From: a virus
Lineage: Duplodnaviria; Caudoviricetes
Strand: one strand, 5' to 3'
DNA length: 51,606 bases
IMG/VR virus record: IMGVR_UViG_3300049136_000115
Location: 1 to 51,606 of that record
Shown here: positions 34,833 through 51,606 of the stretch, one piece after another
Numbering within the stretch: the stretch's first letter is position 1
Layout of the letters: the number at the start of each line of letters is the position of its first letter
Program-made: the position numbers and the translations under genes
The notes under the pieces: model-generated
What the model was told of the DNA's origin: nothing
The model's database searches: none
Seen by the model: the letters and a program-made list of their open reading frames with translations, nothing else

Positions 34833-34862
34833 GGCGGGCTCCTTCGGTTCGGTCCTGGGGAG

Positions 34863-34935: not shown

Positions 34936-34959
34936 TCGGTGTTGAGTTGTGAGTTGTGC

Positions 34960-35038: not shown

Positions 35039-35048
35039 GGTCTCGGGG

Positions 35049-35294: not shown

Positions 35295-35332
35295 GGCTCC
35301 CCCTTCGCGGTTGGTGTGGGCGGTGGTGCGGG

Positions 35333-35677: not shown

Positions 35678-35728
35678 GGCACCCCCTGCGTGGTCTACCG
35701 GGGCCGATAACCCGGCCCCATGTAGAAG

Positions 35729-35757
35729 ATTGTACTAGGAAGTACGAGTCTCCACAA
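35729..35757 (-). promoter_or_regulatory. Promoter probably driving the 35677-33161 unit including tRNA and HAD gene
   Basis: TTGTGG-17-TACAAT in AT-rich island, followed by leader hairpin GGGGCCG/CGGCCCC. Confidence 0.65.
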
Positions 35758-35827
35758 GATAGATGTCCTACTTTCTTTGACACCTCTGGCCCCACCCGCT
35801 CGCAGGCCCTCCCACGACCGCGCCCCG

Positions 35828-36394: not shown

Positions 36395-36674
36395 GCCGGC
36401 CCTCCAGGACGATGGTGGGCAGCGTCGCCTTGCAGTCGGCGCACTTCCGGCTGGCGACCGGCGTGCCATCACCGAGCCGGAACGGGGTCTCCTCCCACGA
36501 GGCGTGCGCGCACTCCGGGTCCGGCTCGTCTCCGATCTCGAAACCGTGCCAGTTCACGGCGGTCAGGTTCGCGGCGACCTCGGCGACGACGACTTCCGCA
36601 ACGCGCGTACCGACCACGGACGGGGCGCTGTCCGTGGCAAACGTGAGCGTGACGCTGACCTGCTTCTCAGGCAT
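36381..36674 (-). CDS. Hypothetical protein with CAH/CADC motif
   Basis: AAGGAG RBS; coupled to Thg1 stop. Confidence 0.7.
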   Translation of the reverse strand: MPEKQVSVTLTFATDSAPSVVGTRVAEVVVAEVAANLTAVNWHGFEIGDEPDPECAHASWEETPFRLGDGTPVASRKCADCKATLPTIVLEGRRADA

Positions 36675-37482
36675 CAGGGTTCTCCTTGCGGTGGTTCTCG
36701 TTGACGGGGGCAGATCGCAGCATCGGTAGCGTGGGGATGACGTCGGCGAGCCATGAGCCGGGTTCGGTGGTGAAGTGCGGGGCCGCAGCGGTCTCCCACC
36801 ACGAGCGCATCGCGGTGGTGTGGACGGTCTGCTTCGTCCGCTTGTCGACGTATTCGACGGGCCGCTCCCCGGTGCGACGCACGGCGACGCGTCCGCGTTT
36901 GCAGCCGTCCGGGTAGTCGTTCCAGTTCACTCCAGCCTCTGACCACAGCAGCTCTTGCATGCCTCCCGTGGAGACGCCGTGCAGCCGTCGGTGCGAGAAG
37001 TGCGCCTGCGCGGCCATGGAGATGCTGTTGCGTACCGCGTCGCGCTGCCGCCACAGGAAGTAGTTCGCCACCTCCACCGGGTCCGACAGCGTGAACACGC
37101 GCGAGTCGAACAAGGCACGGCCGGGCCGGCGCTCGTTGAGGACGGCGGTGGCGAGCGCCGCTGTAATGCTGAGCTGCTTGGCAACCACGCCACCGAACCA
37201 CGGCTCCGTCTGCTCGCTCGCGAAGTCGATGACGAGGACGCTGACCTCGTCTGACTGGGTGTAGGCAAACACGCTGCCGGTGATCTCCTGGCAGAGGGCC
37301 TCGGCGACGGTGTCCATGTCGGTCATGAACGCCTCGTCGAACGGCTTCTCCGCTCCGCGCAGGTATGAGTGGAAGGCGCGGCCGTCGACCCGGATCACCG
37401 TGTAGGTGCGGCGCGGGAGCACCGCGCGGTAGGCGGCCTCGTGCCGCTTCATCCGGTCGCCGAGCGAGGTGCTGTCGCTCAC
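36667..37482 (-). CDS. thg1: Thg1-like protein (tRNA-His guanylyltransferase / 3'-5' polymerase)
   Basis: LGDRMK, IRVDGRAFHSY, YTQSDEVS, FDSRVF, YFLWRQRDAVRNSI, NWNDYP..KRG. Confidence 0.95.
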   Translation of the reverse strand: MSDSTSLGDRMKRHEAAYRAVLPRRTYTVIRVDGRAFHSYLRGAEKPFDEAFMTDMDTVAEALCQEITGSVFAYTQSDEVSVLVIDFASEQTEPWFGGVVAKQLSITAALATAVLNERRPGRALFDSRVFTLSDPVEVANYFLWRQRDAVRNSISMAAQAHFSHRRLHGVSTGGMQELLWSEAGVNWNDYPDGCKRGRVAVRRTGERPVEYVDKRTKQTVHTTAMRSWWETAAAPHFTTEPGSWLADVIPTLPMLRSAPVNENHRKENPDA

Positions 37483-37841
37483 AGATGCGTCTCCCCTCGT
37501 GCGAGGACGCGCGCGGCTTCCTGCTCGGCGGCCCGTTCGGCGACGTCGTAGCCCAGGTACTTCGTGAGCTGGGCGAGGACGGGCCGGGCGCTCGCGCCGC
37601 CTCGCTTCGCGGCGATGTTCACCAGGTCTAGGAACAGCGCGGTGGGCACGAGCTGGTCGCCGGGCCATTCGACGCGGGCGCCGTGGTAGCCGTTCAGCAG
37701 TTCCTCCAGCGACGTCGCGCCGGTGGCGAACCCGTACTCGGGGTCGTCGATCACGAACACGCGGCCGGAGGGGAACTCGGCGCCGTCGAGGACTTGGCCG
37801 TTGTGGTGCAGGCGGAAGCCGCGGGTGAAAGCGGGTTGCAT
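37479..37841 (-). CDS. Hypothetical protein
   Basis: AAGGAG RBS; LDGAEFPSGRV. Confidence 0.7.
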   Translation of the reverse strand: MQPAFTRGFRLHHNGQVLDGAEFPSGRVFVIDDPEYGFATGATSLEELLNGYHGARVEWPGDQLVPTALFLDLVNIAAKRGGASARPVLAQLTKYLGYDVAERAAEQEAARVLARGETHL

Positions 37842-37858
37842 GGAGTTCTCCTTGGCGG

Positions 37859-38059
37859 TCACTGGCCGCACCTGGGGCAGGGCTGGTCTACGAGGTCGAG
37901 GCAGACGACGCAGGTCAGCTCTTCGTCGTCGTCCGCCCATTCCGAGTCGGTGACGTTCGTGCCGCACAGGGCTCTGTCGGGGTCGCAGTGGCAGACCGAG
38001 TGCGTGAGGTCGTCGGCTGCCTGCTCGGTGGCCGCACGCTCCGGCGCAGGCGCGGTCAC
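37859..38059 (-). CDS. Small Cys-rich protein
   Basis: HSVCHC..ALCG...CVVC...CPRC. Confidence 0.7.
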   Translation of the reverse strand: MTAPAPERAATEQAADDLTHSVCHCDPDRALCGTNVTDSEWADDDEELTCVVCLDLVDQPCPRCGQ

Positions 38060-38370
38060 GACTCGCCCCTGTCACTCACCCAGTCCGCCGGCGGCGGGAG
38101 TTGCAGCAGGGCCGTGCGGTTTTCGGAGGCCGGGAAGTCCTGGTCGTCCGGGTCGACGTACTTGTTGCCGTCCGCGTTGCGCAGGTACGCGGTGTAGCGG
38201 ATGACCAGGCCGAAGGCGCTGTCCTCGATGGCCATCTCCGAGTGCACCGGGACGTCGTCCGGTTTGATGTTGTTGGCCCGCAGCCACGCCTGCACGGCGC
38301 GCATGCCGTCCGGTGTCCGGCACAACCGCTCCCACAGGCCGTGGCAGTCGATGACGAGACGTTCGCTCAC
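38056..38370 (-). CDS. Hypothetical protein
   Basis: AWLRANNIKPDDVP; coupled. Confidence 0.7.
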   Translation of the reverse strand: MSERLVIDCHGLWERLCRTPDGMRAVQAWLRANNIKPDDVPVHSEMAIEDSAFGLVIRYTAYLRNADGNKYVDPDDQDFPASENRTALLQLPPPADWVSDRGES

Positions 38371-38633
38371 GGGCGTGTCACCTCCAGGCGGCGTCGGCCG
38401 CCGCGGTCCTGCTGCGTGGCGACGACGTGGTAGCCGTCGGCCCGCAGCTCAGTGGTGATGGCGGTCAGCTGGTCGGCTTCGCCGGGCCCGTCGTAGAAGA
38501 CGTTGACCTGCCGGGGGCCGGCCTGGGCGACGCGGAAGCCGGGGTCCCAGTCGCCACCCTCGAACTCGCTGAACTCGTGGCCCTGGTCGATGAGGAGCCG
38601 TTCGACCGACGCGGCCCGGATACGGCGCGCCAT
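38367..38633 (-). CDS. Hypothetical protein
   Basis: MARRIRAAS; GGAG RBS. Confidence 0.68.
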   Translation of the reverse strand: MARRIRAASVERLLIDQGHEFSEFEGGDWDPGFRVAQAGPRQVNVFYDGPGEADQLTAITTELRADGYHVVATQQDRGGRRRLEVTRP

Positions 38634-38635
38634 GC

Positions 38636-38935
38636 TCAGGGCTCCCTGTAGTGGACGGCGAAGCCGGGCAGACCCATGCCGAAGTCGGGGTCGGCTGAGG
38701 CCGGGCGCAGCGGGGCGCGCAGCTCGGTCTCGTCGACGCTGCACATCGGTTGCCGGGGCGAGGACCCGGCGGGGACTCCCGTCCAGCGGAAGGGCTCGCC
38801 GCAGTCGTGGCAGTTGACCTTGATGTCGGCGTGGTAGCCGACCACGGTCGGGTCGTTGTCGGACGCAGTGACCCGGTTGACCTCCACGTAGGCGTCAAAG
38901 TTCTCGTGCGGACACGGTCGGTCGGGGTTGACCAC
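38636..38935 (-). CDS. Hypothetical protein with CPH/CHDC zinc motif
   Basis: GGAGG RBS; CPHENF...CHDCGEPFRW. Confidence 0.7.
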   Translation of the reverse strand: MVNPDRPCPHENFDAYVEVNRVTASDNDPTVVGYHADIKVNCHDCGEPFRWTGVPAGSSPRQPMCSVDETELRAPLRPASADPDFGMGLPGFAVHYREP

Positions 38936-38936
38936 G

Positions 38937-40163
38937 TCAGGCCTCCTTCGCGAGCTGGCGGGCGTTGAGCACGTGTCGCACCCACTGGGCGTCGGACTCT
39001 GCGACGTGGGCGCCACCGGATCGGGCGACGTGGATGGTGGTGGCCTCACCGTCGCCGTCGCGGGCCGGGCCGACCCACGCCGACCACGGCTGGCTGCCAC
39101 CGGTCGGGCTCTGGTGGCCATCCGGGCAGTGCGGGCACTCAGCGCGTTTCTGCCGGGCGTCGACCACACGCCCGGCGACCGTGAGGTTCCGGCCGCGGGT
39201 GTCAACGCCGACGTGCTCCAACAGGCTGCGGATGCCGCCGGGTGCATCCGGCTCGGCATCGGGCACGGGGATTCCGGGGCCGCCCTCGCGGATCTCGGGG
39301 TGCTGCTCGCGTATGTGGCCGTCCATCAGGGCGCGCGGGATGAGCGGACAGCCCTCGCAGTAAGGGCACGGATCCCGCACCTCGATCCCGGTCAACGGGC
39401 CCTGGTTCGGCGGCCCCTGGCTGGCGGTGGCCTTACACGCGGTCCGGGCGGACCTCCCTTCAGTGGGAGGAAGCTGACCGACGATGCATCCACCTTCGCC
39501 GGGGTGCTCGTACGCGCAGTGCCCGCACTTCACGCAGGCATGGTCAGGGTTCGAGCAGCTGCTCACCGCCCGGCCGTGCTCCGGCTCGCCATCGCCCGCC
39601 AGAGAAGCGCGCAGGTCGGCCGCCCACGAGGGCTCCGGCCCGGTCCATGGGATGACCGGCTGGGTCGGCGGCTGGGCGGTTCCGATCGGGCTGAACTTGG
39701 TGCCGTCAGCCGTCTCGTGCTCATCGTGCGGCCCGCGCTTGATGCATGGGCCGCCGGAGACGATGCCCGACAGCATCGGCATCAGTCGATGGTCGCACTC
39801 GCCCGCGTCGTCCAGCTCGTCGCGGAGTTCAGCGCCGGCGACCCGCACGAGGAACTGCGATGCCTCATGGGCGGCCTGCCAGCGGTCGGCGAGCAGGTAG
39901 GCCCGGCCTGCTGCGGCGCGCGCCTGCTGGTCGGCCTGGTCGGCCTGGTCGGTCCAGACGACGCGGGTGGCGCCGTCGTGGCCGTGTACCGAGAGCATCA
40001 GGTCGAGGCTGTCCCACACGGCGGTGGAGGGGCGTTCGCGCCAGCGGAGGACGACGCTGCCGTCCGGCCACTGCACGCCGTCGGCCACGTCCCCGGCGCC
40101 GGACACGCCGGTCACGTCGGTGTCACGGCGGAGGACGAACAGGCGGGGTATCGCGGTGCTCAC
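38937..40163 (-). CDS. Mosaic multi-module hypothetical protein (408 aa)
   Basis: N-term FVLRRDTDVTGVSGAGDVADGVQWPDG module plus several Cys/His modules. Confidence 0.72.
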   Translation of the reverse strand: MSTAIPRLFVLRRDTDVTGVSGAGDVADGVQWPDGSVVLRWRERPSTAVWDSLDLMLSVHGHDGATRVVWTDQADQADQQARAAAGRAYLLADRWQAAHEASQFLVRVAGAELRDELDDAGECDHRLMPMLSGIVSGGPCIKRGPHDEHETADGTKFSPIGTAQPPTQPVIPWTGPEPSWAADLRASLAGDGEPEHGRAVSSCSNPDHACVKCGHCAYEHPGEGGCIVGQLPPTEGRSARTACKATASQGPPNQGPLTGIEVRDPCPYCEGCPLIPRALMDGHIREQHPEIREGGPGIPVPDAEPDAPGGIRSLLEHVGVDTRGRNLTVAGRVVDARQKRAECPHCPDGHQSPTGGSQPWSAWVGPARDGDGEATTIHVARSGGAHVAESDAQWVRHVLNARQLAKEA

Positions 40164-40801
40164 GCCTCGGTCACCGCCTCGTAGCCGGCGGCGAGGGAGG
40201 TGTACTTGTCGCGGGTGGCGGTGTATTCCGCGACGTACCTGCGGGTGTCGTCGTCCTCGCCGTGCTGGTCAGCCAGCCCCTTCCAGGTGTCGACGTTTTT
40301 CTGCGCCTGTGCGGCGAGTTCGCGCAGCGCCTGGGCGACAGCGGCCGGGGTCGCCCAGGTGTCGTCGGTGACGATCGGGCTGTCGCCGTACACGCACTCG
40401 CTGATGTAGCTGCGCAGGGCGTTGAGCCGCATGAACGCGCGCCGGTCGTAGAAGGCGGCCTTGTAGAAGACGGCGACGCGGCGGCGGCGCAACTGGTCAA
40501 CGACGTACGACCACATGTGGTGGTCGGAGGCTTCCCGCGTCCAGCCTTCGGGGAGCGTGGCCGGGCGGAACAGCGGGTCGCCAGGATCGGCCTCGCCGAA
40601 GGTGAAGCCGAGGGCCTCGAAGTCCGCCTGGTCGTCGCCGTTCAGGTCTGCGGGCAGCTGCTCGGAGTTGACGACCTGCGCCTGCCCGGCGCGCTCCTGG
40701 TCGTCGATGGCCTGGCCGCTGCCGCCGGGTCCCGTGCTCGCGGCCAGGAACGACAGCGCGTTCGCCGGGTCCTTCATGCTTTCGGTGGTGTTCTCAATCA
40801 T
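40160..40801 (-). CDS. Hypothetical phage protein
   Basis: QERAGQAQVV, ATLPEGW, FYKAAFYDRRA. Confidence 0.78.
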   Translation of the reverse strand: MIENTTESMKDPANALSFLAASTGPGGSGQAIDDQERAGQAQVVNSEQLPADLNGDDQADFEALGFTFGEADPGDPLFRPATLPEGWTREASDHHMWSYVVDQLRRRRVAVFYKAAFYDRRAFMRLNALRSYISECVYGDSPIVTDDTWATPAAVAQALRELAAQAQKNVDTWKGLADQHGEDDDTRRYVAEYTATRDKYTSLAAGYEAVTEA

Positions 40802-41027
40802 CGTGGGAGTCCTTGAAGTCGTCGATGGTGGTGAGGGAAGCGAGTTGGCGGCGGCCGTCTCGCAGGGCGTGGCGCCGCTCTCGGCGGCCGGCCAGCGCCT
40901 CGTGCAGGCGGGCCGCGACGGCGTACAGGGCGAGCGCCAGGAGCACGAAGAGGGCCAGGCCGACGGTGGCGGCGAGGCCTCCGAGGAAGCCGACGGCGAA
41001 GACCTCCCAGGTGGTCAGGGCCGCCAT
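40794..41027 (-). CDS. Small membrane protein
   Basis: Long hydrophobic helix; coupled. Confidence 0.68.
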   Translation of the reverse strand: MAALTTWEVFAVGFLGGLAATVGLALFVLLALALYAVAARLHEALAGRRERRHALRDGRRQLASLTTIDDFKDSHDD

Positions 41028-41275
41028 CAGTCACCACCTCGGCGCTGGCGAGAGTCCAGGTAGGCGGCCCTGAGCGATGCCACGGCGAACAGGCCGGCGA
41101 CGGCGAGCCACACGATGGCGCCGGGCTTGTTGTCCCGGTAGGCCTCGCCCATCGAGCCGGACAGGCAGGCCAGGCACAGCAGGCCGAAGAACCAGCCATC
41201 GGTGAGGTCGAAGCACAGCAGTAGCAGCACGGCCAGGAGCGCGAGCGCGATGCCGGCCAGGTTGAGCGGGGACAT
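41027..41275 (-). CDS. Small 3-TM membrane protein
   Basis: MSPLNLAGIALALL; coupled to WhiB stop. Confidence 0.68.
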   Translation of the reverse strand: MSPLNLAGIALALLAVLLLLCFDLTDGWFFGLLCLACLSGSMGEAYRDNKPGAIVWLAVAGLFAVASLRAAYLDSRQRRGGD

Positions 41276-42102
41276 CAGGATCCCTGGGGTTCGTAGTGGT
41301 CGATGGACGGGACGGTGGTGACGCGGCGGATGCGGCCGGGGGGGATGGCGGCTCGGCCGTCGGCGAGGTCGTCGAGGAGCTGCCGGCGGTTGTGCTCCTC
41401 GTTGGCGATGAGGCCGAGCCGGTCGCGGGCGGTGCGGACGGCCTTCACGCCGATGCCGAGGCGGGCGGCGATCTCGCTGTCGGGGAGGGCTTGGGCCCAC
41501 AGGTCGTAGACGGCGCGGCCGCGTTGGCGGGCACGGCGGGCGGCGCGGTCCTGCGCGTAGGCCCGGCGGCATCCGTCGCAGGCCCGTTCGTCGCGGCGCA
41601 GGTGCCGCCGGTACCCGGCCGGTGAGGGGCACAGGCTGGGCTCCGGTGTGGCAGCCTGCTCGGTCTCCTTGCGGCGCTTCAGCTCCTGGACGTACTCGCG
41701 GTTGGCGGCCTTGCAGGGCTCGCAACGGCACCCAGACCGGTAGCGGGACCGCGTGCCGTGCCGGGCCTGCTTCCGCTTGCGCTGCGAAGTGTCACCGGTG
41801 GTGTCCGGCTCGGGATCGACCGGCGGCTTCTGCACGGTGGGGTCCAGGTCGTAGCGCTCGCTGGGGGTGAGTCCGGCGATGACCGCGTCGTCCCGCGCGT
41901 ACACGCTCATGCCGCGCTCCCGGCCCGTGACCCACGACTGGCAGGCGACGAGGACGGGGCAAGCGAAGCATGTCCGCTTCGCCTCGGCCTCGTCCTCCGC
42001 CTTGAAGAACATGTCCGGGTCGGCGACGTCGCGGCACCGGGCGCGGGCCTGCCAGTCCAGGGGGCGGGCCGCGGTGTCGGGGACGGAGTTGGTGTACGCC
42101 AT
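41275..42102 (-). CDS. whiB: WhiB-family (Wbl) regulator with extra zinc-finger and HTH domains
   Basis: WQARARC...PDMFF...AKRTCFACPVLVACQ...AGLTPSER; HGT..Y..GCRC; C-term DSEIAARLGI. Confidence 0.85.
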   Translation of the reverse strand: MAYTNSVPDTAARPLDWQARARCRDVADPDMFFKAEDEAEAKRTCFACPVLVACQSWVTGRERGMSVYARDDAVIAGLTPSERYDLDPTVQKPPVDPEPDTTGDTSQRKRKQARHGTRSRYRSGCRCEPCKAANREYVQELKRRKETEQAATPEPSLCPSPAGYRRHLRRDERACDGCRRAYAQDRAARRARQRGRAVYDLWAQALPDSEIAARLGIGVKAVRTARDRLGLIANEEHNRRQLLDDLADGRAAIPPGRIRRVTTVPSIDHYEPQGS

Positions 42103-42105
42103 GGC

Positions 42106-42498
42106 TCACCGCGCCGGGTACTCGTCGCCGATGGCCGTGGTGTTCCACACATCCGCGCTGACGCACACCTCGTCGCCGGAGTCGAGCTCCAGCTCCCAGC
42201 ACTCGGGCCGGTGGTCGGCGACCTGGCGGGTGCCGTCTGTGACGGTGCGGCAGTCCTCGTACGTGGACGTGGTCTTGCCGACGCGGCGGCTCTTGGTGGT
42301 GCACTGCTGCCTGGTCTTCGGCTCGGTGCGCCACGTCGTCCGGGCCTCGTCGTGTTCCTTGCCGGTGACCGTGCCCTCCGGGCCGGGGGTGCCGCAGCCG
42401 GCCAGCAGGACGACCGTGGCCGCCGCAGCGACGGCGGCCCTGACTACGCGGCCGCAGATGCACGGGTAGTACCGCTTGCAGCGGGGGCAGACGTTCAC
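42106..42498 (-). CDS. Putative lipoprotein
   Basis: Lipobox LLAGC; ECWELEL...VCVS..W. Confidence 0.7.
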   Translation of the reverse strand: MNVCPRCKRYYPCICGRVVRAAVAAAATVVLLAGCGTPGPEGTVTGKEHDEARTTWRTEPKTRQQCTTKSRRVGKTTSTYEDCRTVTDGTRQVADHRPECWELELDSGDEVCVSADVWNTTAIGDEYPAR

Positions 42499-43238
42499 GG
42501 CAGGAGACCCTTCGCGCGGGCCTGCGGCACCCACTGCCCGAACTCCCGGGTGATGCCGTCGTACAGGTCGCTGTCGGGCACGTTCTTCGGGGAGCGTCCG
42601 GCGTGGAAGTAGCTCGCGTTGTCCAGGAATCGGCCGCGCATCGTGTCGAGCTCGGTGAGGAAGCGCACCTTGGACGGGCCAAACCCGACGAAGGACCAGA
42701 ACACAGGGAGCTTGCTGGACTGCACGAGTTGGAGGCGGACGTCGTCGGGGTCCTGCGGGGCCCCGTCGGTCTGGAAGATGACCAGCGCCGGGTCGGTGGA
42801 CCGGCTGTCGACGTAGTGCTCGATGACGCGGCGCATCGCGATCGTGTACTGGGTGCCGCCCATCGTGAGGTCACCGCCGTGCAGCTGGTGCTGCTGGGCG
42901 AGGACGCCCTGATAGCTGTCCAGGCTGACGTCGACGGTGGGGTACGGCTTGCTGTCGAACATGATCAGCGGAACCACACCGTCGTCGTCGACGGTCACGG
43001 ACAGTCCGAGCGCCTGGTCGGCGAGGTGCTGCACGCTGCCGTTGCCGAAGTACGGGCTCATCGAGTACGAGCGGTCGACGACCAGGTACACGGCCGCGCG
43101 CAGCCCGGACAGGCCGTTCTTCTCCAGCGACACGGTGGCCGTCTTCGCGAGCGAGACCAGCGCCGCGGGCACCTTGTCGAGGCTGATCGCCGGGGTGTGC
43201 GGGGCGGCCGGGGCCGCGTTCTTGTTGCGGTTGAACAT
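42495..43238 (-). CDS. vWA-domain protein (TerF-associated vWA-like)
   Basis: MIDAS VVDRSYSM, GGTQY, FQTDG, FWSFVGFG, LDNA. Confidence 0.85.
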   Translation of the reverse strand: MFNRNKNAAPAAPHTPAISLDKVPAALVSLAKTATVSLEKNGLSGLRAAVYLVVDRSYSMSPYFGNGSVQHLADQALGLSVTVDDDGVVPLIMFDSKPYPTVDVSLDSYQGVLAQQHQLHGGDLTMGGTQYTIAMRRVIEHYVDSRSTDPALVIFQTDGAPQDPDDVRLQLVQSSKLPVFWSFVGFGPSKVRFLTELDTMRGRFLDNASYFHAGRSPKNVPDSDLYDGITREFGQWVPQARAKGLLP

Positions 43239-43309
43239 CGGTTGCTCTTCTCTCTGTTGGGACGCCCGCCGCCCGGCCGGTGGCATCCGGACGGCGGGCG
43301 GGTTTGGGG

Positions 43310-43759
43310 TCAGCTCGGCTGCGTGCCCGGGCTGAGGGCGAACGGCGTCTGACCGAGCGGGACGGGGCGGCTCCCGGTCGGGGGCTTGTCGCCGTGTGGG
43401 GGCAGCGGTCGGACCGCACGGGCATTCGCCAGCTGCGCCTCCAGCGCCCTGTTCGCCTCGCGCAACTGCGTCAGCTCCCGCAATTGCTCTTCGAGTTCGG
43501 CGATCCGCACGCTGGCCTTCTCCAGAGCGGCGGCCTTGTCGTTGCGGTCTGCAGTGACGGCGTCGTACTCGGAGGCGAGGCCGACCAGCTTGCAGCCAAG
43601 GTCTTCGGCTGCCGCCTCGTGGCGGGCGGCTTCGGCCCGGAGCGCTGCTCGCGGCACGACGTGCCGGTGCAGGCCGCGCCCGGCCGGGGCCACAGCGATC
43701 GTGACGGCGGCCGTGCCCACGACGCCGGCGGAAAGGAACACGTACGCGATCACGCTCAC
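43310..43759 (-). CDS. Membrane-anchored coiled-coil protein
   Basis: N-term TM then heptad repeats; coupled GTG. Confidence 0.68.
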   Translation of the reverse strand: MSVIAYVFLSAGVVGTAAVTIAVAPAGRGLHRHVVPRAALRAEAARHEAAAEDLGCKLVGLASEYDAVTADRNDKAAALEKASVRIAELEEQLRELTQLREANRALEAQLANARAVRPLPPHGDKPPTGSRPVPLGQTPFALSPGTQPS

Positions 43760-43995
43760 GCCGCACCGTCCTTCGCTTCGGACGGGCACCACGGGCAGTT
43801 GGCCTTGAGGCAGACGGCGCCACGCTCGATGGACAGCTCGTGGCAGGCCGTCTCGTTCGCGTGCTGGAGGTCGGCCACGCGCTTCTCCAGGGCGCGGCTG
43901 CGGTCCCGCTCGGCGGCCAGCTTCACGCGCAGCCGGTTTGCCTGTGCGTCGCTGAGCCGGGTGCGCCAGCGGCGTATGTAGCTCGGGGCGGTCAT
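43756..43995 (-). CDS. Hypothetical coiled-coil protein
   Basis: MTAPSYIRRW; C-term CLKANCPWC. Confidence 0.65.
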   Translation of the reverse strand: MTAPSYIRRWRTRLSDAQANRLRVKLAAERDRSRALEKRVADLQHANETACHELSIERGAVCLKANCPWCPSEAKDGAA

Positions 43996-44336
43996 GTCGT
44001 TCTCCGGGTGGTGTCGGCCGCCTCGAGGCGGCGGGAGAAGGCGGCGAAGTCCTCGGTGAACCCCGAGGCGATGGACTCGCGGAAGTCGCGTGCAGCGCAC
44101 GCGGCTTCGTCGGCGTAGCGGACCCACAGATCGGCGCCGTCCTGGGTGAGCCGCACGTCGGCGGCGTACCCCCCTGCGGGCCGGTAGGCGGGCAGGCGGT
44201 CGCCGGTGCGGACCTGGAGCGCGGCGGATACGGCGCTCGCTCTGCTGCCGTACGTGCCGGCGAGCACCCACTGGCCGGGCATCTGCCGGGCCTGCTCGGC
44301 GGCGTGCCGGTGGTCGGCGTGCGGGCGTTGCTTCAT
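43992..44336 (-). CDS. Hypothetical protein
   Basis: PGQWVLAGTY...AYRPAGGY..LWVRY. Confidence 0.7.
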   Translation of the reverse strand: MKQRPHADHRHAAEQARQMPGQWVLAGTYGSRASAVSAALQVRTGDRLPAYRPAGGYAADVRLTQDGADLWVRYADEAACAARDFRESIASGFTEDFAAFSRRLEAADTTRRTT

Positions 44337-44743
44337 GCGCGCCTCCCCGCCGTCGGGATGTTCTCGGGGAGCGGGGTGAGCATGCGGATGCCCTCGAACG
44401 GAGCGCGCGAGAGCAGTTCGCCTTGCCCGGGCGGCGTGGGGATCGGCCGCGGGTTCGGGTCGGGGTCGTCCTCGCCGCGGAACTCGGTGCAGCGGTACTG
44501 GTCGGCGATGCCGTACCGGCCGTGCTCGTCGCGCGGCCCGTCCAGGAACTGCGCCGGGGTGCGACCCACGAGGGTGATCAGGACTAGCGGGCAGCCCTGC
44601 GCGTCGTTGCCCTGTCGCGCGGGCTTGTCGTGGATGCACTGGTCGCAATTCGCGGCCATCCACCCGTAGCCCTCGTCGCCGTTGGAGAAGGCCGGACGGT
44701 CGTGGGACTCCGCGAACAGCCGGTCGTAGTCGTCGGGGCTCAC
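44333..44743 (-). CDS. Hypothetical protein
   Basis: AFSNGDEG..WMAANCDQCIHD. Confidence 0.72.
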   Translation of the reverse strand: MSPDDYDRLFAESHDRPAFSNGDEGYGWMAANCDQCIHDKPARQGNDAQGCPLVLITLVGRTPAQFLDGPRDEHGRYGIADQYRCTEFRGEDDPDPNPRPIPTPPGQGELLSRAPFEGIRMLTPLPENIPTAGRRA

Positions 44744-45072
44744 CGGCCATCACCCCGCGGGCCGGAGGGTACCCGGGCGATGTGTTCGCGCAGGATGCCG
44801 GTCTTCACGTCGTAGTCCTGTGCCCGCGCCCAGTTGGCGTGCGGGAAGGCTTCGCGGAGGATCATCGCGGCCTGTTGGTGGAGGCCGCCGTCGTACAGCG
44901 GGACCTCGCGGCCGTGGATGCCGATGACCATGGCGACCCACTTCTTGCCTTCCGGCCAGTTCACCCGCGTGATGCGGACCTCTTTCACGCTGCGCCCCAT
45001 GAGGACGTACAGCTGCTGGTCCAGGGCGGCGCGGGTGGCGGCGGCCGCGTGGTGTTCCTTGGGCGCGGTCAT
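44740..45072 (-). CDS. Hypothetical protein
   Basis: AFPHANWARAQDYDVKTG; coupled. Confidence 0.7.
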   Translation of the reverse strand: MTAPKEHHAAAATRAALDQQLYVLMGRSVKEVRITRVNWPEGKKWVAMVIGIHGREVPLYDGGLHQQAAMILREAFPHANWARAQDYDVKTGILREHIARVPSGPRGDGR

Positions 45073-45491
45073 ACCGAACCGCCCGGGTGGAAGCAGGAGC
45101 AGACGTCGGCCATGAGCCGCTGGTACGAGGCGACTGTGGCCGGGGTCCAGCGGTGCTGCGGGCCGGCGTAGGCCTCGCGGAACCAGCGGTCGCACACGGC
45201 GAGCAACTGCTGCTCGCGGTCGGCGTCGCGCGCGGTGGTGCCGCCGTCGGCCGGAGTGCAGGCCTCGGGGTGGTCGGCGGCGAGGCGGGCGAACGCGTCC
45301 TCGAGGGCGGGGTTGTCCCAGGCGTGCCGGTGCGGGTCGGTCACCGGGCGACGCAACCGGGCCTGCTCGAAGTACGTGTCCAGGGCGCGGCGGGAGTGCC
45401 GCAGCCGGAACGCGTCCCAGCGGGCTCGCAGGCCGGTTATCGGGTGGGTAGTGCGACGGCCGATGTGCATCGTCGCGGTCATCGCCATCAC
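45069..45491 (-). CDS. Hypothetical protein
   Basis: GAAGGAAG RBS; coupled to next gene. Confidence 0.65.
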   Translation of the reverse strand: MMAMTATMHIGRRTTHPITGLRARWDAFRLRHSRRALDTYFEQARLRRPVTDPHRHAWDNPALEDAFARLAADHPEACTPADGGTTARDADREQQLLAVCDRWFREAYAGPQHRWTPATVASYQRLMADVCSCFHPGGSV

Positions 45492-45500
45492 TTCCTTCGG

Positions 45501-45818
45501 TCAGTCGGTGTCGGGTGTGGTGTGCAGGGCTGCGCGTACTGCGGCGGCCCCGCGTTGTGCGGTCTCGGGTCCGGGCGGGTGCCGGCGGGAACGCCACGCG
45601 TCCGGCAGGCCTGCGAGCAGGTCTGGGGGTTCGGCTTCGGGGTCGGCGATCAGGTGGGCGACGGCGACGACCAGGCGGCCGAAGGCCATGTCCTCGCGGT
45701 AGCGGAGCTGTGCGAGGACGTCGCGCAGTTGGTCGCTGGGCCAGTCGGGGCGGGCTGCGGCGGCGAGGGCGAGCAGCTGGCCGGTGGCCGGGCGGGGCAC
45801 GCTGGTGTCGGCGTTCAT
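45501..45818 (-). CDS. Hypothetical protein downstream of replication initiator
   Basis: LAAAARPDW motif; coupled. Confidence 0.7.
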   Translation of the reverse strand: MNADTSVPRPATGQLLALAAAARPDWPSDQLRDVLAQLRYREDMAFGRLVVAVAHLIADPEAEPPDLLAGLPDAWRSRRHPPGPETAQRGAAAVRAALHTTPDTD

Positions 45819-47062
45819 CCGGGCCTCCCGGATGGAAGGGCCGGAGGCTGCGGGCGTCCGGGAGGGAGCTGGTAGGGCTCGTGGATGCCGAGCTGCCGTT
45901 CCCGCTCGTCGAGTTCGCGTTCGAGGCGGCGCAGAGCGGCTGTGGCGGCGCGGTCGTCAGCGCACACGGCGCACTCGGCGTCGGTGTGCCAGATCCGGCC
46001 GGACTCGCAGGCGACCAGGCTGCACCCGTGACGGACAACGGCCGCGCCGAGCAGCCAGCGGCCCGGGTCGCGGATCGTCTCGGTGGACGCGAAGCGGCGT
46101 TCCAGGCGGGCGCGCAACCGTTCCGGTGTCTGCCCCTGGTCGAGCTGGCGGCCGATTTGCCGGGCGGCTTCACGGACCACGTACGGCGACAGGCCGGGCA
46201 GCAGCGCCTTCACCGGCTCGAGGACTCGCCAGATCCGCGGAGCGAGAGTCAGCTGTGGCCCCGTGTAGGCGCGCTGGAAAGTTCGGGGAAGCGGAGGGTT
46301 TTCCACAGCCCCTCGCGCTACTACCTGCTCTCGCCTACGGCGGATATCCGAGGCGGCAGTGGGCGGATCATCCGGTGAGTCAGTCGGGTGGTGTTCCTTA
46401 TACGCGAGGGACCCGTCTTCAAGATCCGCAGCCGATCCCTCTTCAGTGTCCGCAGTGAACGCGGGCTGCGAGGGCTCGTCGTGGACGGTGTAGACGTGGC
46501 GGCCTCGGTACCCGGCGCGGCGGTCCACGCTGATCCAGCCGAGCCGCTCGAGGTCGCGGAGGATGCGCCGCACCGACCGGGTGTCGAGCGCCACGCCGGC
46601 CTTCTGGCCGGAGCGGTGGCGCAGGACGCGCGCCAGTTCGGCGAGCGTGATGTCGTGGCCTGTCGCGGTGGCGTACGCCAGCGCGGCGTAGGCGCGTAGC
46701 TGGCGCGGGCTGAGTGACTCGGCGGCGCGCGACGGCACCCACGCACCGTGCTCACGTCGGTGGTTGGTGGCGCGGATGCGGCGCACGGCCGTCCAGCCGG
46801 TGCCGCCCGGCCGGGTGCGCCGCTGGCTCGTGAGCTCCACGACGTCGTCGTCCGGCGCGGGCCGCATCAGCTGGGTGAGTGCGCGCTCGACGGTGGAGCG
46901 CGCCAAACCGAGCAGGCCAGAGAGGTAGGAGACCCCCGCCTCACAGCCGGTGTCGCGCCGGTCGAGCGCCGCGATTTTCACGTAGACGGGCAGCACGCTG
47001 TCGCTGTACGAGCCGACGATGACGCGTAGCGGGACACGGACTCGCTGAGGCATGGGGGTCAC
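45815..47062 (-). CDS. Putative replication initiator (tandem winged-HTH)
   Basis: GVSYLSGLLGLARSTVERALTQL; VRRILRDLERLGWISVD; IRDPGRWLL; AAGGGAGG RBS. Confidence 0.72.
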   Translation of the reverse strand: MTPMPQRVRVPLRVIVGSYSDSVLPVYVKIAALDRRDTGCEAGVSYLSGLLGLARSTVERALTQLMRPAPDDDVVELTSQRRTRPGGTGWTAVRRIRATNHRREHGAWVPSRAAESLSPRQLRAYAALAYATATGHDITLAELARVLRHRSGQKAGVALDTRSVRRILRDLERLGWISVDRRAGYRGRHVYTVHDEPSQPAFTADTEEGSAADLEDGSLAYKEHHPTDSPDDPPTAASDIRRRREQVVARGAVENPPLPRTFQRAYTGPQLTLAPRIWRVLEPVKALLPGLSPYVVREAARQIGRQLDQGQTPERLRARLERRFASTETIRDPGRWLLGAAVVRHGCSLVACESGRIWHTDAECAVCADDRAATAALRRLERELDERERQLGIHEPYQLPPGRPQPPALPSGRPG

Positions 47063-47092
47063 CTCCCTTCAGGGCTCGATGGGTTGAGGGGC

Positions 47093-47248
47093 TCAGTCGT
47101 CGAAGATCAGCAGAGTGGCGATGCCGAGCCACGTCGCAACGGCGGCGAGGACGGCAGCGATCCCTGTGAGATGGCCGTCCGAGGTGAGGCCGTAGGTGAC
47201 GGCACCGGAGATGCCACCGAGGCACAGGCCAGCGAGGAACACAGCCAT
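47093..47248 (-). CDS. Small 2-TM protein (51 aa, not in ORF track)
   Basis: MAVFLAGLCLGGISGAVTYGLTSDGHLTGIAAVLAAVATWLGIATLLIFDD; ATG overlaps upstream TGA. Confidence 0.68.
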   Translation of the reverse strand: MAVFLAGLCLGGISGAVTYGLTSDGHLTGIAAVLAAVATWLGIATLLIFDD

Positions 47249-47757
47249 CAGTCGCCCCCGTCTCCGAGCGCGCCGTCCAGGGCTGCGGTCATGCCGTCGG
47301 CGAGGGTCTTCATCTCGTGCAGCACCTCGCTGACCGTGAGGTTCGGGGTGTGCAGCACGCGGCGGGCGTACGTCGCCCAGTGGGCGAGGCCAGCCCGCAG
47401 ACGCGCGGTCTCCAGGTAGGCGAGCTGCCCGCCGGTCAGGCGCAGGGTGGACTCGTCAAGCTCCAGCTGGCCGGCGTCGTCCAGCGTTCCGCGGGCCGTG
47501 CGCTGGAGGTGCAGGAACCTGAGCGCCTCCCGGACGTAGCCCTCCTGCGACTCGTTGGGCAGCTCCAGGTGCGTGATGCGGACCTTGACCGACGCTTCCT
47601 TCTCAGTGCCCGGGGCGGGCTCGATGCGCTCGATCGCGGCGAACTCGCCGATGAACAGTCGCCGGGAGGCGGGCACGTCGTACACCGGGCGGATGTGCGG
47701 CTCCAACGCCTCCTGGGCGCTCGCCGACACCTTGGCGTCGAACTTCAGCTGCGTCAC
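47248..47757 (-). CDS. Hypothetical phage protein
   Basis: AAGGAG RBS; VTQLKFDAKV. Confidence 0.72.
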   Translation of the reverse strand: MTQLKFDAKVSASAQEALEPHIRPVYDVPASRRLFIGEFAAIERIEPAPGTEKEASVKVRITHLELPNESQEGYVREALRFLHLQRTARGTLDDAGQLELDESTLRLTGGQLAYLETARLRAGLAHWATYARRVLHTPNLTVSEVLHEMKTLADGMTAALDGALGDGGD

Positions 47758-48242
47758 GACTCGGACTCCTTGCTGGGTGTGGTCTGGCGCCAGATACGGA
47801 TGACGGCGCCGGGGTGGGCAAGCGCGTCGGCGCCCGTGAGCACATAGGCCTTGGCGGCGAACACGGCGGTGACGCGGCTGTCGTCCGCGAACACCCCCGC
47901 GTCGGTGAGGGCGTCCTGCGTCGAACGGATCAGCTTGTCGAGATCGGGCTTGCCGGTCGGATGCGCCGGAGCCGAGGCCTTCACCGTGCCGGCGTTCCGG
48001 CCCGTCCCGTAGTGGCCCTTGGACCGCCGGAAGGTGAAGACCACCTCCAGGCGCACGGCCTCGTTGAGCGGCTTCCACCCGTCGTCGTGGGCGAGGGCGT
48101 CCAGCGCGGCGTGCTTCACGGCCTCGCGCCACGGCTTCACCGCAGGCGACGACTCGTACAGCGCGCCCGCCCGGTTGCGGGTCTTCGAGCCCTGCGGCGC
48201 CGGGGTGCCGTGCACGGTAAGCAGGAACACAGGGGCAGTCAC
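47754..48242 (-). CDS. rusA: RusA-family Holliday junction resolvase
   Basis: GTPAPQGSK, KPWREAV, KPDLDKLIRSTQDALT..DDSRV. Confidence 0.92.
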   Translation of the reverse strand: MTAPVFLLTVHGTPAPQGSKTRNRAGALYESSPAVKPWREAVKHAALDALAHDDGWKPLNEAVRLEVVFTFRRSKGHYGTGRNAGTVKASAPAHPTGKPDLDKLIRSTQDALTDAGVFADDSRVTAVFAAKAYVLTGADALAHPGAVIRIWRQTTPSKESES

Positions 48243-48601
48243 GGCGTCTCACCGCCGTGCGCGCGCCGGTCCAGGACGTCGGCGGTGTACTGGAGGACGG
48301 CCGCCACGCTGGTGCCGCGCAGGTCGTTCAGCTCAGCGAGCACACCAACCGATCCGCTGGTCGCCAGCAAGACGGTGGCAATGTCGCTCGCCGGGAGATC
48401 GACGACCTCTGAGATGTCGTCGGCGAGCGCACGAGCGGCCTCGCTCAGGAAGTGGACGCGGGCGGTGTCGGTGTTGCGCCGCCGGTTCTCACGGATCGCG
48501 TCGAGCATCCCCTGCCGGGAGTACTGCTCTTTGGTGAAAGCCTTGATGCCGCGCTCCGTGAAGGCGCGGGCGAGCGCGTCAGCCTCTTCGGACCTGTTCA
48601 C
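48239..48601 (-). CDS. Hypothetical protein
   Basis: Coupled at both ends. Confidence 0.68.
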   Translation of the reverse strand: MNRSEEADALARAFTERGIKAFTKEQYSRQGMLDAIRENRRRNTDTARVHFLSEAARALADDISEVVDLPASDIATVLLATSGSVGVLAELNDLRGTSVAAVLQYTADVLDRRAHGGETP

Positions 48602-49041
48602 TCCAGTGGCTCCTGCCTTGTTGTGCCAGGGCCGGGCGTAACCGTCTGGCGTGCGGACTGGGGCCCGTACGGCGCTGGCCGGATCTCAGGAGCGGGGGTC
48701 TGCCGTCGTGACGGCTCCTCCCCGGCCATGGCTCCCGTCACGTCGGTGCTCACGTCGACATCGGCGGGCGGCTTTGACGCCGTACGGGTGGTCTGGGGCT
48801 CGCCCGGAGCAGGCGGGGTCACCGGAGCGTTCGAAGACTCCTCTCCCGCCTTCGCTCCCGCGACGGCGCTGCGGACGCCGGCGGGTGGCGTTGACTCCGG
48901 GCGAGCGGTCTGGGACCCGTCCGGCGCAGGCGGGGTCTGCGGAGCAGAGGAACGGACGTGCTCCTCTCCTGCCTTGGCTTCCACGTCAGCCCTCGTGCCG
49001 GGGGCTGGGGACGGCTTTGACGCCGGACGGGTGGTCTTCAT
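48598..49041 (-). CDS. Low-complexity 147-aa ORF overlapping the structured-RNA array
   Basis: Start and stop overlap neighbours; three ~40-aa Pro/Ala/Thr repeats that mirror the RNA units. Confidence 0.5.
   Translation of the reverse strand: MKTTRPASKPSPAPGTRADVEAKAGEEHVRSSAPQTPPAPDGSQTARPESTPPAGVRSAVAGAKAGEESSNAPVTPPAPGEPQTTRTASKPPADVDVSTDVTGAMAGEEPSRRQTPAPEIRPAPYGPQSARQTVTPGPGTTRQEPLE
48664..49032 (-). ncRNA. Tandem array of three structured RNA units with kink-turns
   Basis: Units 49032-48915, 48906-48798, 48788-48664; each closed by a different perfect 11-12 bp stem; conserved junction motifs UCAAMGCC, AGCSAW, RGA-GGAG...CUCC-NNN-GA; CCCAGACC linkers. Confidence 0.75.
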
Positions 49042-49508
49042 CGCAGCGTCACCGTCCGGATCGTGATGCCGGGTGTGGGCGCGGTACGGGCGTGCTCGGC
49101 GATCTCCCGCATCTGCTCAGCCCACGACGGGGACAGCTCGCGCGGGGTCTGCCCGGCGAGGGCCTTGAGGACGTCGCCGTGCACGGTGTCGAGGTACTCG
49201 GCGGGATCGGGCAGCGAGCCGATCTCGATCAGCCCCAGCGCCGTGTTGTCGGGGTTCCAGCCGGTGAACACGACCGGCCCGGCGTACGGCTGCACCACGG
49301 CGCCGAGCGCGGCCAGCACGCACGAGCCGACCACGTTGCGCGGGTACCGCTTCGGGAAGAACAGGCCGACGTCGTTGACCCAGCCGGCCACCGCGAGGCC
49401 CGGCAGGTTGACGCGCGCCCGACCCTCATGCCCGATGACCGCAGCCCAGTCGAGTTCGCCGTCGTGCTGGGTGAGTTCGCCGTCGGCGGCGATGACCGCG
49501 TACCTCAC
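49038..49508 (-). CDS. Hypothetical protein (DUF3846-like)
   Basis: YAVIAADG, GWVNDVG, RNVVGS, YAGPVVFTG. Confidence 0.68.
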   Translation of the reverse strand: MRYAVIAADGELTQHDGELDWAAVIGHEGRARVNLPGLAVAGWVNDVGLFFPKRYPRNVVGSCVLAALGAVVQPYAGPVVFTGWNPDNTALGLIEIGSLPDPAEYLDTVHGDVLKALAGQTPRELSPSWAEQMREIAEHARTAPTPGITIRTVTLR

Positions 49509-49873
49509 CGCCGGCCCCCGATCCGGGCGCGGTTGCCGGGCCGGTTGACGGCGGGGGCCGTGCCGCGTCGGAGCTTGGCGACGGGCACCCAGACGCGCCA
49601 GGTGAGGTCGTATTCGTTGTCCCACGTGGCGAACACCATCGGCACGTCGTGCCACTCACCCCCAAGGCACACGGCCGTCACGCCGCCGTCGAACATCCCC
49701 GGCACGTGCTCCGCCTGGTCGAGGGCAACGGTCCCCCCACGGCCGCCGACGTGGACGACGCGAGAGCCGACGGGGAACTGCTGGGCAAGGGCCTGAAGGC
49801 GATCGCGTACCTCCCACCACTCGTGCCCGGTGGGCACGACGCGGCCTCGGTAGGCGAGCGTGCGGGCGTTCAT
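49505..49873 (-). CDS. Hypothetical protein
   Basis: FPVGSRVVHVGGRGGTV; coupled. Confidence 0.65.
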   Translation of the reverse strand: MNARTLAYRGRVVPTGHEWWEVRDRLQALAQQFPVGSRVVHVGGRGGTVALDQAEHVPGMFDGGVTAVCLGGEWHDVPMVFATWDNEYDLTWRVWVPVAKLRRGTAPAVNRPGNRARIGGRR

Positions 49874-50523
49874 GACGCCGTCCTCTCTGCATGGTCGTGG
49901 GTGCCGACGAAGCGGGCGCGGACGCCGTGTTGGCGTCCTTCGGTGAAGGCCTCTGCCTCCCAGGCGCCCGCTGGCCGGAAGGCGGTGATGCCGCCCGAAC
50001 GCAGCCGCCAGGCGTTCTGCCGGGCCGTAGGCCCGCTGTCGCAGACGACGACTGTCCGCCACTCGCCGGGGTTCTGACGCAAGAGCTCGGCAGCCTCCCG
50101 GTAAGCCCTGCGGGTCTCGCTGTTGGTCGGCTGGTGGGGCACGTCCGGCAGCTGTAGTGCCGCTCTCGGGAACCAGCCGTGGAGCAGGCAGATGGCCACA
50201 GCCTGAGCCGGGGTACGCGCTCCGACCCGGCCCACGGCCGCCTCTCGGTGCTTTCGCACTGTGTTGTGATGGAGGCCGAGGTCCTCGGCGATCGCGCGGC
50301 CCGTCTGCCCGTTGGCGGTGGCGATGAGGATCTGAAGCTGACGCCGCGTCAGAGGGCAGTCCCAGCGGGGCTCCCACTCCAGGCGCGGGCCACTGCGGAG
50401 CCGGTCGACCTCATCGAGCAGCAGCCGGATGTTCCGCGCGCCGGGCGCGTTCGGCGACCGCTGGATCGCCTCCCGAAGGTTGGCGATCACGAGAGAGCTG
50501 AGTTCACCGGCCACGGGACTCAC
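49870..50523 (-). CDS. LuxR-type HTH protein with extra C-terminal domain
   Basis: PLTRRQLQIL..ANGQT..AIAEDLGL..NTVRKH...VGART..QAVA; C-term NPGEW..AFRPAGAWEA resembles 43992..44336. Confidence 0.8.
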   Translation of the reverse strand: MSPVAGELSSLVIANLREAIQRSPNAPGARNIRLLLDEVDRLRSGPRLEWEPRWDCPLTRRQLQILIATANGQTGRAIAEDLGLHHNTVRKHREAAVGRVGARTPAQAVAICLLHGWFPRAALQLPDVPHQPTNSETRRAYREAAELLRQNPGEWRTVVVCDSGPTARQNAWRLRSGGITAFRPAGAWEAEAFTEGRQHGVRARFVGTHDHAERTAS

Positions 50524-50812
50524 CGCCCTCGCCGCGTTCCAGCCGCTCCATGCGACGTCTCAGGGACTCGATTTCGTCACGCTGCCGGGAGACCTCGCCG
50601 ACATAGCGGGGCAGGGCCTCGCGGGCGTGGGAGATGAACTCCACGACCGAAAGCCGCTCGCTGTCGACCCACGTCTCCAGGAACGCGATGGGGCCGACCT
50701 GGTCGGGCAGGCCGCCGTGCTCGTTGGGCTCTACCGTCCAGGGGCCCACGGGGGCGTCGGCCACGATGCGCTGTGTCGTGCGCAGGTACTCGGGGTCTAT
50801 CGGCTCAGGCAC
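50504..50812 (-). CDS. Hypothetical phage protein
   Basis: PVGPWTV...EFISHAREALPRYVGEV.R motif. Confidence 0.72.
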   Translation of the reverse strand: MPEPIDPEYLRTTQRIVADAPVGPWTVEPNEHGGLPDQVGPIAFLETWVDSERLSVVEFISHAREALPRYVGEVSRQRDEIESLRRRMERLERGEGGESRGR

Positions 50813-51032
50813 CGCGCCCACCGTCCTCGGCATCGAGTGCGGCGAGGACCTGGCGCAGGCTCTCCTCCAGGGCGCCGAACATGCCGGCCACGATGTTGCC
50901 GGGCGTGGTGTCGACGTCCAGCGCGTTCGCCTCAGCCAGGATGTGGCGGGCCTGCTCGCGGGCGATGTCGAGGGGCGGCACGAACGTCGGCCGCTGGGGC
51001 ACGAGTTCGGTGTGTGCGATGCTGGATTGCAT
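50805..51032 (-). CDS. Hypothetical protein
   Basis: GAGG RBS; GALEESLRQVLAALDAE. Confidence 0.68.
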   Translation of the reverse strand: MQSSIAHTELVPQRPTFVPPLDIAREQARHILAEANALDVDTTPGNIVAGMFGALEESLRQVLAALDAEDGGRGA

Positions 51033-51110
51033 CGGGCCCACCTCGTTCCTCTCAGGTGATGGGTGGTTGGGCCGAGGGCTCGCCGGGTGCACGGCGGGCC
51101 CTCATTGCTG

Positions 51111-51245
51111 TCAGGCGGCTGATCTGGCGGGCAGCGTTTCCCTGCGCGGCTCTGTCCGCATCAGTGCACGGAGGTGCTCACGCTGTTCGGGGGTGAACGG
51201 CGGCCAGTCGTCGACCAGCCGGCGGATGTACTCCTCGCTGGTCAT
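51111..51245 (-). CDS. Small protein (44 aa)
   Basis: IRRLVDDWPPFTPEQREHLRALM motif; coupled. Confidence 0.65.
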   Translation of the reverse strand: MTSEEYIRRLVDDWPPFTPEQREHLRALMRTEPRRETLPARSAA

Positions 51246-51364
51246 GCGCTGCCTGCTTTGAACTCGCGGTCCGCCCCGCACGTGCGGCACTGGGCCCGCC
51301 AGAGGGGGTTTCGGTGGCCGCAGTTGCACACCCACCGGCACGCGGCGTCGATGCGGGCGCGCAT
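51242..51364 (-). CDS. Small RanBP2-like zinc-finger peptide (40 aa)
   Basis: WVCNCGHRN...CRTCG; ATG overlaps Cro stop. Confidence 0.6.
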   Translation of the reverse strand: MRARIDAACRWVCNCGHRNPLWRAQCRTCGADREFKAGSA

Positions 51365-51606
51365 CAGGCCACGCTCCGCGGGACCTGCGGTTCGGCCTGG
51401 TCGTCGGGCTCGGGGAGCAGCAGGTCGTGGACTTCGCACTCGAGGACTTCGGCGATCGCCTTGAGGTTTCCCGGGGAGAAGCCAGCTTTCCCGCATTCCA
51501 CGCTGCTGAGGTGGCTCACGCTCACGCCGGCCTTCTTCGCGAGGTCCGTGACGCTGAGCCCCGCCGCTATCCGCCGACGGCGGAACTCTCGGGGGTCTTC
51601 GTTCAT
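51364..51606 (-). CDS. Cro-like XRE HTH regulator (start at window edge)
   Basis: RRRRIAAGLSVTDLAKKAGVSVSHLSSVECG; first gene of early operon. Confidence 0.85.
   Translation of the reverse strand: MNEDPREFRRRRIAAGLSVTDLAKKAGVSVSHLSSVECGKAGFSPGNLKAIAEVLECEVHDLLLPEPDDQAEPQVPRSVA

Follow-up and report, generated by a model that had tools for sequence, protein, structure and literature searches.

A tandem array of predicted three-way-junction RNAs with kink-turn arms in a Streptomyces-type phage, and single relatives in other phages

The array and its surroundings

The DNA analysed here (the window) is a whole virus record, IMGVR_UViG_3300049136_000115, of 51,606 bases and 70.7% G+C, in which the called genes all lie on one strand across ~51 kb. 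PHROGs assignments among its 66 ORFs include Cro-like, RusA, replication initiator, terminase, portal, capsid, tail and endolysin genes, every one of them encoded by the minus strand. We infer a temperate Streptomyces-type phage, the attribution to Streptomyces being made because the closest relatives of the array sit in named Streptomyces genomes. The array lies ~2.3 kb behind cro, in the following setting.

51364..51606, minus strand: Cro-like HTH gene heading the operon (PHROGs and Pfam scans)
49038..49655, minus strand: upstream gene, start uncertain, DUF3846-like (a language-model lead only)
48598..49041, minus strand: 147-aa array ORF spanning all three units, overlapping the upstream stop with its start and the next start with its stop
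48915..49032, minus strand: unit 1, 118 nt; P1 of 12 bp plus U.G, P2 arm, P3 arm with predicted kink-turn; 3b.3n is C.A
48936..48967, minus strand: predicted kink-turn of unit 1 with its capping hairpin; the non-bulged strand runs from 48967, the bulged strand is 48944-48936
48907..48914, minus strand: linker between units 1 and 2, 8 nt
48798..48906, minus strand: unit 2, 109 nt, predicted fold as unit 1; 3b.3n is C.A
48844 (non-bulged) and 48827 (bulged), minus strand: predicted kink-turn of unit 2
48789-48797, minus strand: linker between units 2 and 3, 9 nt
48664..48788, minus strand: unit 3, 125 nt, predicted fold as unit 1 with the first P3 pair swapped to U-A; 3b.3n is U.G
48721 (non-bulged) and 48692 (bulged), minus strand: predicted kink-turn of unit 3
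48239..48601, minus strand: ORF downstream of the array, a 120-aa gene with no assigned function
47754-48242, minus strand: RusA-like resolvase gene (PHROGs and Pfam scans), in the downstream early-gene block 45815..48242
45815-47062, minus strand: replication initiator-like gene (PHROGs and Pfam scans)

The array ORF has a weak codon bias (GC3 0.76), no match in PHROGs and nothing above the cut-off in Pfam. A unit follows the upstream DUF3846-like gene in 5 of the 5 Streptomyces genomes that have this gene (401 searched), and in L140, L183, L187, L202 and L207 the array ORF is joined in frame with homologues of the 120-aa gene (judged by eye and from a blastp cluster). Elsewhere in the window, a gene of the Thg1 family of tRNA-His guanylyltransferases (36667-37668, minus strand) lies near a tRNA gene (34863-34935, minus strand), and there is a weak HAD_SAK_2 match of the RNA-repair type at 33161-33718; together these are possibly a tRNA repair set. 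The early region also encodes a vWA-TerF-like protein (PF10138, E 3e-52; 42495-43229, minus strand).

In the array a predicted RNA fold, a Y-shaped three-way junction one arm of which bears a kink-turn, is repeated three times head to tail. Three minus-strand units of 118, 109 and 125 nt had been set out in a preliminary description, and the sequences it gave for P1, P2, P3, the GA/GA elements and the linkers are all correct as written. Its P1 and P3 stems can be lengthened: a further U.G pair extends P1 at the junction (in 42 of 42 aligned units), and P3 gains an A-U pair, which is U-A in unit 3. Segments that it listed as conserved within each unit have the sequences that were reported and are partly paired, giving a G-C and a Y-G pair at the base of P2. 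A repeat finder places the units at spacings of 117 and 126 nt. Units 1, 2 and 3 fold with z-scores of -4.4, -5.1 and -2.5 (200 shuffles each), and the opposite strand with -3.1, -3.6 and -2.5; the minimum-energy folds of units 1 and 3 taken alone leave the P3/kink-turn arm incomplete, so that this arm rests on the alignment. At 48602-48663 of the window (minus strand), the place taken in relatives by a 3' hairpin and YqaJ, a short stretch just ahead of the next ribosome-binding site echoes the first bases of P3 and is perhaps a deletion scar or the remnant of a fourth unit.

A shared fold and an open frame

Arrays of 1-4 units were collected by pattern scans of viral contigs and genomes. Fifteen of 18 genome loci from these scans match the later model (14 Streptomyces, 1 Actinomycetota); the genome matches L199, L200 and L205 are due to chance. 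That the units keep a common fold through compensatory changes in their stems, as originally proposed, is borne out by an alignment (A1) of 42 distinct units: 26 of 35 pairs change on both sides, and 92.6% of 1466 pair cells are paired, versus 82.4% after shuffling and 34-46% with slid partners, kinship among the sequences being uncorrected for in these covariation counts. RNAalifold recovers the named structure together with the U.G pair at the junction in 42/42, and P1 covaries in a wider set of 60 sequences as well (89.9% versus 69.1%). The order of the predicted fold is P1 (11-13 bp), a short purine-rich joint, the variable P2 arm, one or two bases, and then P3, stacked on P1 and bearing the kink-turn ~8 pairs from the junction, followed by a capping hairpin. 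The variable arms are paired and occupy 20-45 and 18-30 nt around the fixed junction. Since the search patterns prescribed the junction, along with parts of P3 and the kink-turn, some of its conservation is a product of the search; the outer part of P1, P2 and the third C-stem pair were left free, and these covary. Tandem copies keep different P1 stems, and therefore each unit closes on itself. Kissing between arms was rejected, loop-loop pairing (mean 2.13 bp in 62 units) being no better than with shuffled partners (2.21 bp).

The assignment of a kink-turn by sequence also stands. In the canonical stem, columns 84-113 and 85-112 are G-C in 42/42 units and 86-111 changes on both sides in 19. 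Among 62 distinct units (the 2 weakest of 64 rows having been dropped) the 3-nt bulge is followed by 1b.1n = G.A in 62/62 and 2b.2n = A.G in 58/62, with part of both fixed by the search patterns. The next position, 3b.3n, is C.A in 39, C.C in 9, U.G in 5, C.U in 3, G.G in 3, C-G in 2 and U-A in 1. PMC4382518 describes the same arrangement, a 3-nt bulge and then G.A and A.G pairs beside a C-G stem, and gives the rule that the identity of the 3b.3n pair predicts whether a kink-turn folds in Mg2+ without protein; by this rule 59 of the 62 are predicted to do so. The kink-turn is a motif, not a family; in the present units it accompanies a new three-way junction as an accessory and is attached in either orientation.

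On the sense strand G.U cells outnumber A.C cells by 132 to 52, or by 70 to 52 if the invariant pair is left out. Because this excess is modest, it is chiefly the kink-turn and the sense orientation that favour RNA over single-stranded DNA. Both strands fold better than shuffles, as would be expected of an element acting as DNA or propagating selfishly with no function as RNA, whether a single-strand hairpin signal or an in-frame palindromic insertion, of which the Rickettsia palindromic elements are examples. Such an element would have little reason to keep the tandem G.A pairs and the 3-nt bulge at the frequencies just given, or an invariant U.G pair that works solely in the sense strand.

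In 32 of 33 Streptomyces-type arrays no stop interrupts the frame through the units. A start codon stands no more than 30 nt before unit 1 in 32/33, and in all 32 arrays that have one it overlaps the stop of an upstream ORF of at least 50 codons. Read-through of a stop codon into the unit was rejected, since the other two frames hold stops in 23/33 and 17/33 arrays. The two variable arms keep phase in 58/62 and 57/62 units. At least 10 arrays have a frame that continues into YqaJ, and 3 have one that continues into RusA (identified by motif tags, and by Pfam for one YqaJ); in the others it runs into homologues of the 120-aa neighbour or ends soon, as in the window. A four-unit array upstream of YqaJ with 127-nt spacing (L186:5988-6496) has an internal stop, the only broken frame of the 33. 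Selection on the peptide sequence was likewise rejected: substitutions in P1 fall on all three codon positions and alter residues. The earlier proposal that selection acts on the RNA and not on the peptide thus holds for the peptide's sequence but not for its reading frame, which is itself conserved. As judged from these comparisons, then, conservation covers pairing and frame but leaves out the peptide sequence; because the frame is conserved, the array RNA is probably translated through.

A small fixed core with freely varying arms, lying between phage genes and sometimes in tandem, is also what might be expected of a new small self-cleaving ribozyme, or of an RNase-processing signal, that cuts polycistronic phage mRNA; bacterial self-cleaving ribozymes cluster near certain gene classes, according to PMC5737381. 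However, up to four cuts inside the coupled YqaJ/RusA frame would cost the gene, and the frame is kept in 32/33 arrays. There is no match to an Rfam ribozyme, and PMC5737381 states that conserved motifs with 3' terminators did not self-cleave. We consider a cutting element very unlikely.

Single units, their sites and the hairpin behind them

The junction core of the arrays is also present singly, between genes, in ~95 other phage records, collected by a metagenome scan and by looser viral scans with the same junction (61 units collected earlier and 35 distinct new matches to a tight pattern). In the looser scans 39 of 245 pattern combinations have a P1 of at least 8 pairs, with a second peak at 12-13; the tight pattern, run over all viral contigs, finds 58 records, in 46 of which P1 extends at least 3 pairs past the pattern. 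A first search pattern was discarded as too loose (~4100 matches, with model R2 blank in 100 of 120 of those loci, a result that also serves as negative control), and ~27 similar 51-nt viral matches were set aside as a chance match to an unrelated gene start. Three isolated Arthrobacter phages carry one unit each (Ranunculus, at 50068-50205 of PQ362686.1, 51.6 bits; MellowYellow, 41.4; BruhMoment, 34.2), all outside the training sets, between recombinase-like and exonuclease genes; for comparison, unit 1 of the window, itself in the training set, scores 110.4 bits. When array and single units were compared by blastn with annotated phages and plasmids, only Arthrobacter phages matched. Most unit-bearing contigs have 65-77% G+C and a few 48-61%; those with the units L536, L757 and L771 have 48-52%, and their hosts may be non-actinobacterial.

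Single units are mostly intergenic and lie on the sense strand. A stop codon on the same strand falls within 20 nt of the unit start in 22 of 58 units versus 1 on the other strand, and within 150 nt in 37 of 58 versus 10. Upstream genes include capsid, minor head, terminase, RecT, recombinase, primase and a tRNA; downstream genes include scaffold, adaptor, HNH, terminase, exonuclease and tape measure. By regular expression, the kink-turn has the orientation found in the window in 18 of 61 single units and the reverse in 13, none being recognised in 30; the reversed motif recurs in 18 of the 35 new units versus 3.3 by shuffling.

Several single units have features of their own. One (L492:2906-3099) starts 14 nt past a tRNA gene, between minor head and scaffold genes. 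That of MellowYellow (L452:2296-2431) keeps the junction core, but its P3 arm is long and branched and shows no clear kink-turn; in this phage and in Ranunculus a U-run follows P1. A blastn search with the unit region of Ranunculus (L453) matches 20 places, one of which matches the model, and another repeat may be present there. DUF433 and PIN-domain genes, a toxin-antitoxin-like pair, lie downstream of a single unit that has a 16-bp hairpin (L278:159-2158). In 14 of 55 single units (L714-L771), versus 3.2 after shuffling, the P2 arm contains the palindrome CAUG, counted in the set in which it was noticed; it is a lead, and nothing firmer, to loop dimerisation.

Each phage searched whole has one site. 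This is so in 10/10 whole phage records searched with R2 (records chosen for holding a unit), the single weak extra match lying inside a long ORF and having no long P1, and it is so in the window and in Ranunculus. The site itself differs between phages: it may follow capsid genes, RecT/recombinase genes or a tRNA, lie between minor head and scaffold genes, or precede HNH, terminase, exonuclease or tape-measure genes. In 5 Streptomyces genomes R2 finds only the prophage arrays and one unit before a tape-measure-like gene, model R1 with strict filters matches in 6 of 151 Streptomyces genomes, and a strict pattern finds no copy in 401 Actinomycetota genomes. A universal host copy that the phage RNA might mimic was therefore rejected for the genomes searched (R2 in 5 Streptomyces, the strict pattern in 401 Actinomycetota). 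The changing site, often adjoining recombination genes, would suit the DNA-level or selfish element considered above; a dispersed selfish repeat does not fit, because there is one site per genome, and the neighbours share no mobilising gene. Of the explanations considered this kind strikes us as the most improbable.

A hairpin of 12-17 bp, mostly U-poor, often stands close behind the last unit. Within the next 55 nt, a stem of at least 9 bp is present in 20 of 36 arrays, where 1.5 would be expected, and in 11 of 59 single units, where the expectation is 2.2. The stem covaries: among 18 arrays selected because they have it, 9 of 14 pairs change on both sides. In Streptomyces, stems poor in U mark the 3' ends of RNAs (PMC8269248). 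The window has neither this hairpin nor YqaJ, and its three units are intact.

The hairpin, or else a ribosome-binding site and start within 70 nt downstream (25 of 61 single units), is where a local mRNA switch would act: by detecting a ligand or protein, or by delaying the ribosome, the junction would gate termination at the hairpin or translation of the next gene. Self-folding kink-turns are typical of riboswitches (PMC4382518). The downstream genes share no function, however, and a metabolite riboswitch does not fit for that reason; the tandem riboswitch was accordingly the least supported of the three functions first proposed for the array. An informal look noticed no strand common to unit and hairpin, and the window keeps three intact units with no hairpin to gate. 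An anti-Shine-Dalgarno-like loop, present in 26/61 units of the discovery set with a motif list chosen post hoc, occurs in 2 of the 35 new units versus 1.5 expected and was dropped; the loops are at most pyrimidine-rich. A local switch is, all told, an unlikely account of the units.

Known systems and possible roles

The array is not a member of any Rfam family, nor is it a put element or a TIGR-Tas array, in keeping with the first reading of the sequence, in which no family was recognised. Rfam 15 finds only a tRNA in the window, the best match to the array reaching 15.8 bits versus a threshold of 64, and only tRNAs or nothing in 44 related loci (17 + 20 + 7). The literature searched contains no description of the junction RNA, the alignments of PMC10690425 and the supplement of PMC5737381 lying outside the comparison. 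The three readable files of PMC10690425 contain none of six core motifs; the junction RNA may be among the unnamed candidates of that paper. The RNA class and its architecture are apparently uncatalogued, and the function may yet fall into a known kind.

TIGR-Tas arrays (PMC12045711) similarly comprise tandem phage RNA units with variable palindromic closing stems and short linkers. They have paired 8-12-nt spacers between the motifs called boxes C and D, which the junction units lack; an array here has only 1-4 units, and most relatives are single. No Nop-domain (Tas) gene is found among the 66 window ORFs in PHROGs or 49 in Pfam, the neighbours of other loci having been partly scanned. Four known multistem RNAs of unknown function are, like the junction units, conserved and backed by a terminator-like stem. 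Three of the four go with one protein domain, whereas the junction units go with phage operons generally, have no Rfam match and can lie in a reading frame.

The put element of phage HK022 is a further known system to compare. According to PMC9378689 it is an RNA of ~70 nt with two stem-loops, located at or within ~270 nt of a promoter, which acts alone and over 10 kb. Like it, the units are structured phage RNAs that lie in sense orientation in an early operon of lambdoid type and have no known protein partner. They might accordingly be cis-acting antiterminators, the nascent RNA binding RNA polymerase and carrying it through the terminators of the lytic operon, with several copies serving as several loading chances before the ribosome arrives. 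A single sense-strand site per phage, a terminator-like stem often directly behind the unit, and window genes that run on one strand over ~51 kb, none of them matched to an antiterminator family in PHROGs or Pfam, would all suit such a role. Put is two-stem, promoter-near and non-tandem, whereas the units are three-way junctions of 109-125 nt in up to four copies, in a kept frame ~2.3 kb behind cro or in the middle of late operons. Moreover, the reading frame of the arrays stays open and coupled, and a ribosome following behind should unfold RNA that is bound to polymerase. On the coding strand of the window from 33000 to 51606 there is no U-tract terminator to be overcome, by a scan that misses U-poor ones. 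Antitermination is a possible role, on the doubtful side.

The best explanation, to which we give a probability of roughly 0.4, is that the units are gene-like RNAs left over from the lytic transcript that bind a host factor. A model is provided by the exoribonuclease-resistant RNAs of flaviviruses, viral three-way junctions, also arranged in tandem, that leave a stable RNA after decay of the remainder; unlike these, the units have no pseudoknot or loop-loop pairing that could be found, and their virus is a DNA phage of bacteria. The unit RNA would outlast decay of the lytic transcript, its ends defined by the long P1 stem and by the 3' hairpin in those cases that have one; once released from the mRNA it would act in trans, its conserved junction binding a host protein or small ligand, and extra tandem copies would raise the dose. 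The element would be RNA rather than single-stranded DNA. In the Streptomyces lineage the module would have settled just behind a coupled start codon, after which the downstream gene could be made only by translating through it; the frame may be kept while residues drift because the downstream gene needs this translation.

This explanation is preferred because the junction is fixed and the arms are free, because the fold is predicted to form by itself, and because there is one movable site, placed just behind stop codons. The protective 3' stem, the tolerance of translation and the amplification to four self-closing copies count in its favour for the same reason. Against it, the searched genomes hold no host RNA to mimic, the window does without the 3' hairpin, and a put-like element would equally account for a single site per genome among genes of the same orientation. 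No read from three raw RNA runs falls on the locus L168, a result too thin to weigh on either side. A bolder variant sees in the units a widespread counter-defence device of actinobacterial phages, made of RNA alone, which would sequester a host immune protein or a signalling nucleotide: a movable cassette with one site per phage, which Streptomyces prophages would have multiplied to four copies, these serving also as the coding start of recombination genes. We regard this variant as decidedly unlikely in its specifics.

What emerges is a structured RNA class of ~33 arrays and ~95 single copies, absent from Rfam and present in isolated, growable Arthrobacter phages, hence directly testable. 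Should any of the leading proposals hold, its function would be new to actinobacterial phages within the literature searched, whether that is a trans decoy, an antiterminator that needs no protein or a new ribozyme. The arrays also present a complex RNA fold inside a coding frame and fused to several unrelated genes, an arrangement that RNA screens confined to intergenic DNA would miss.
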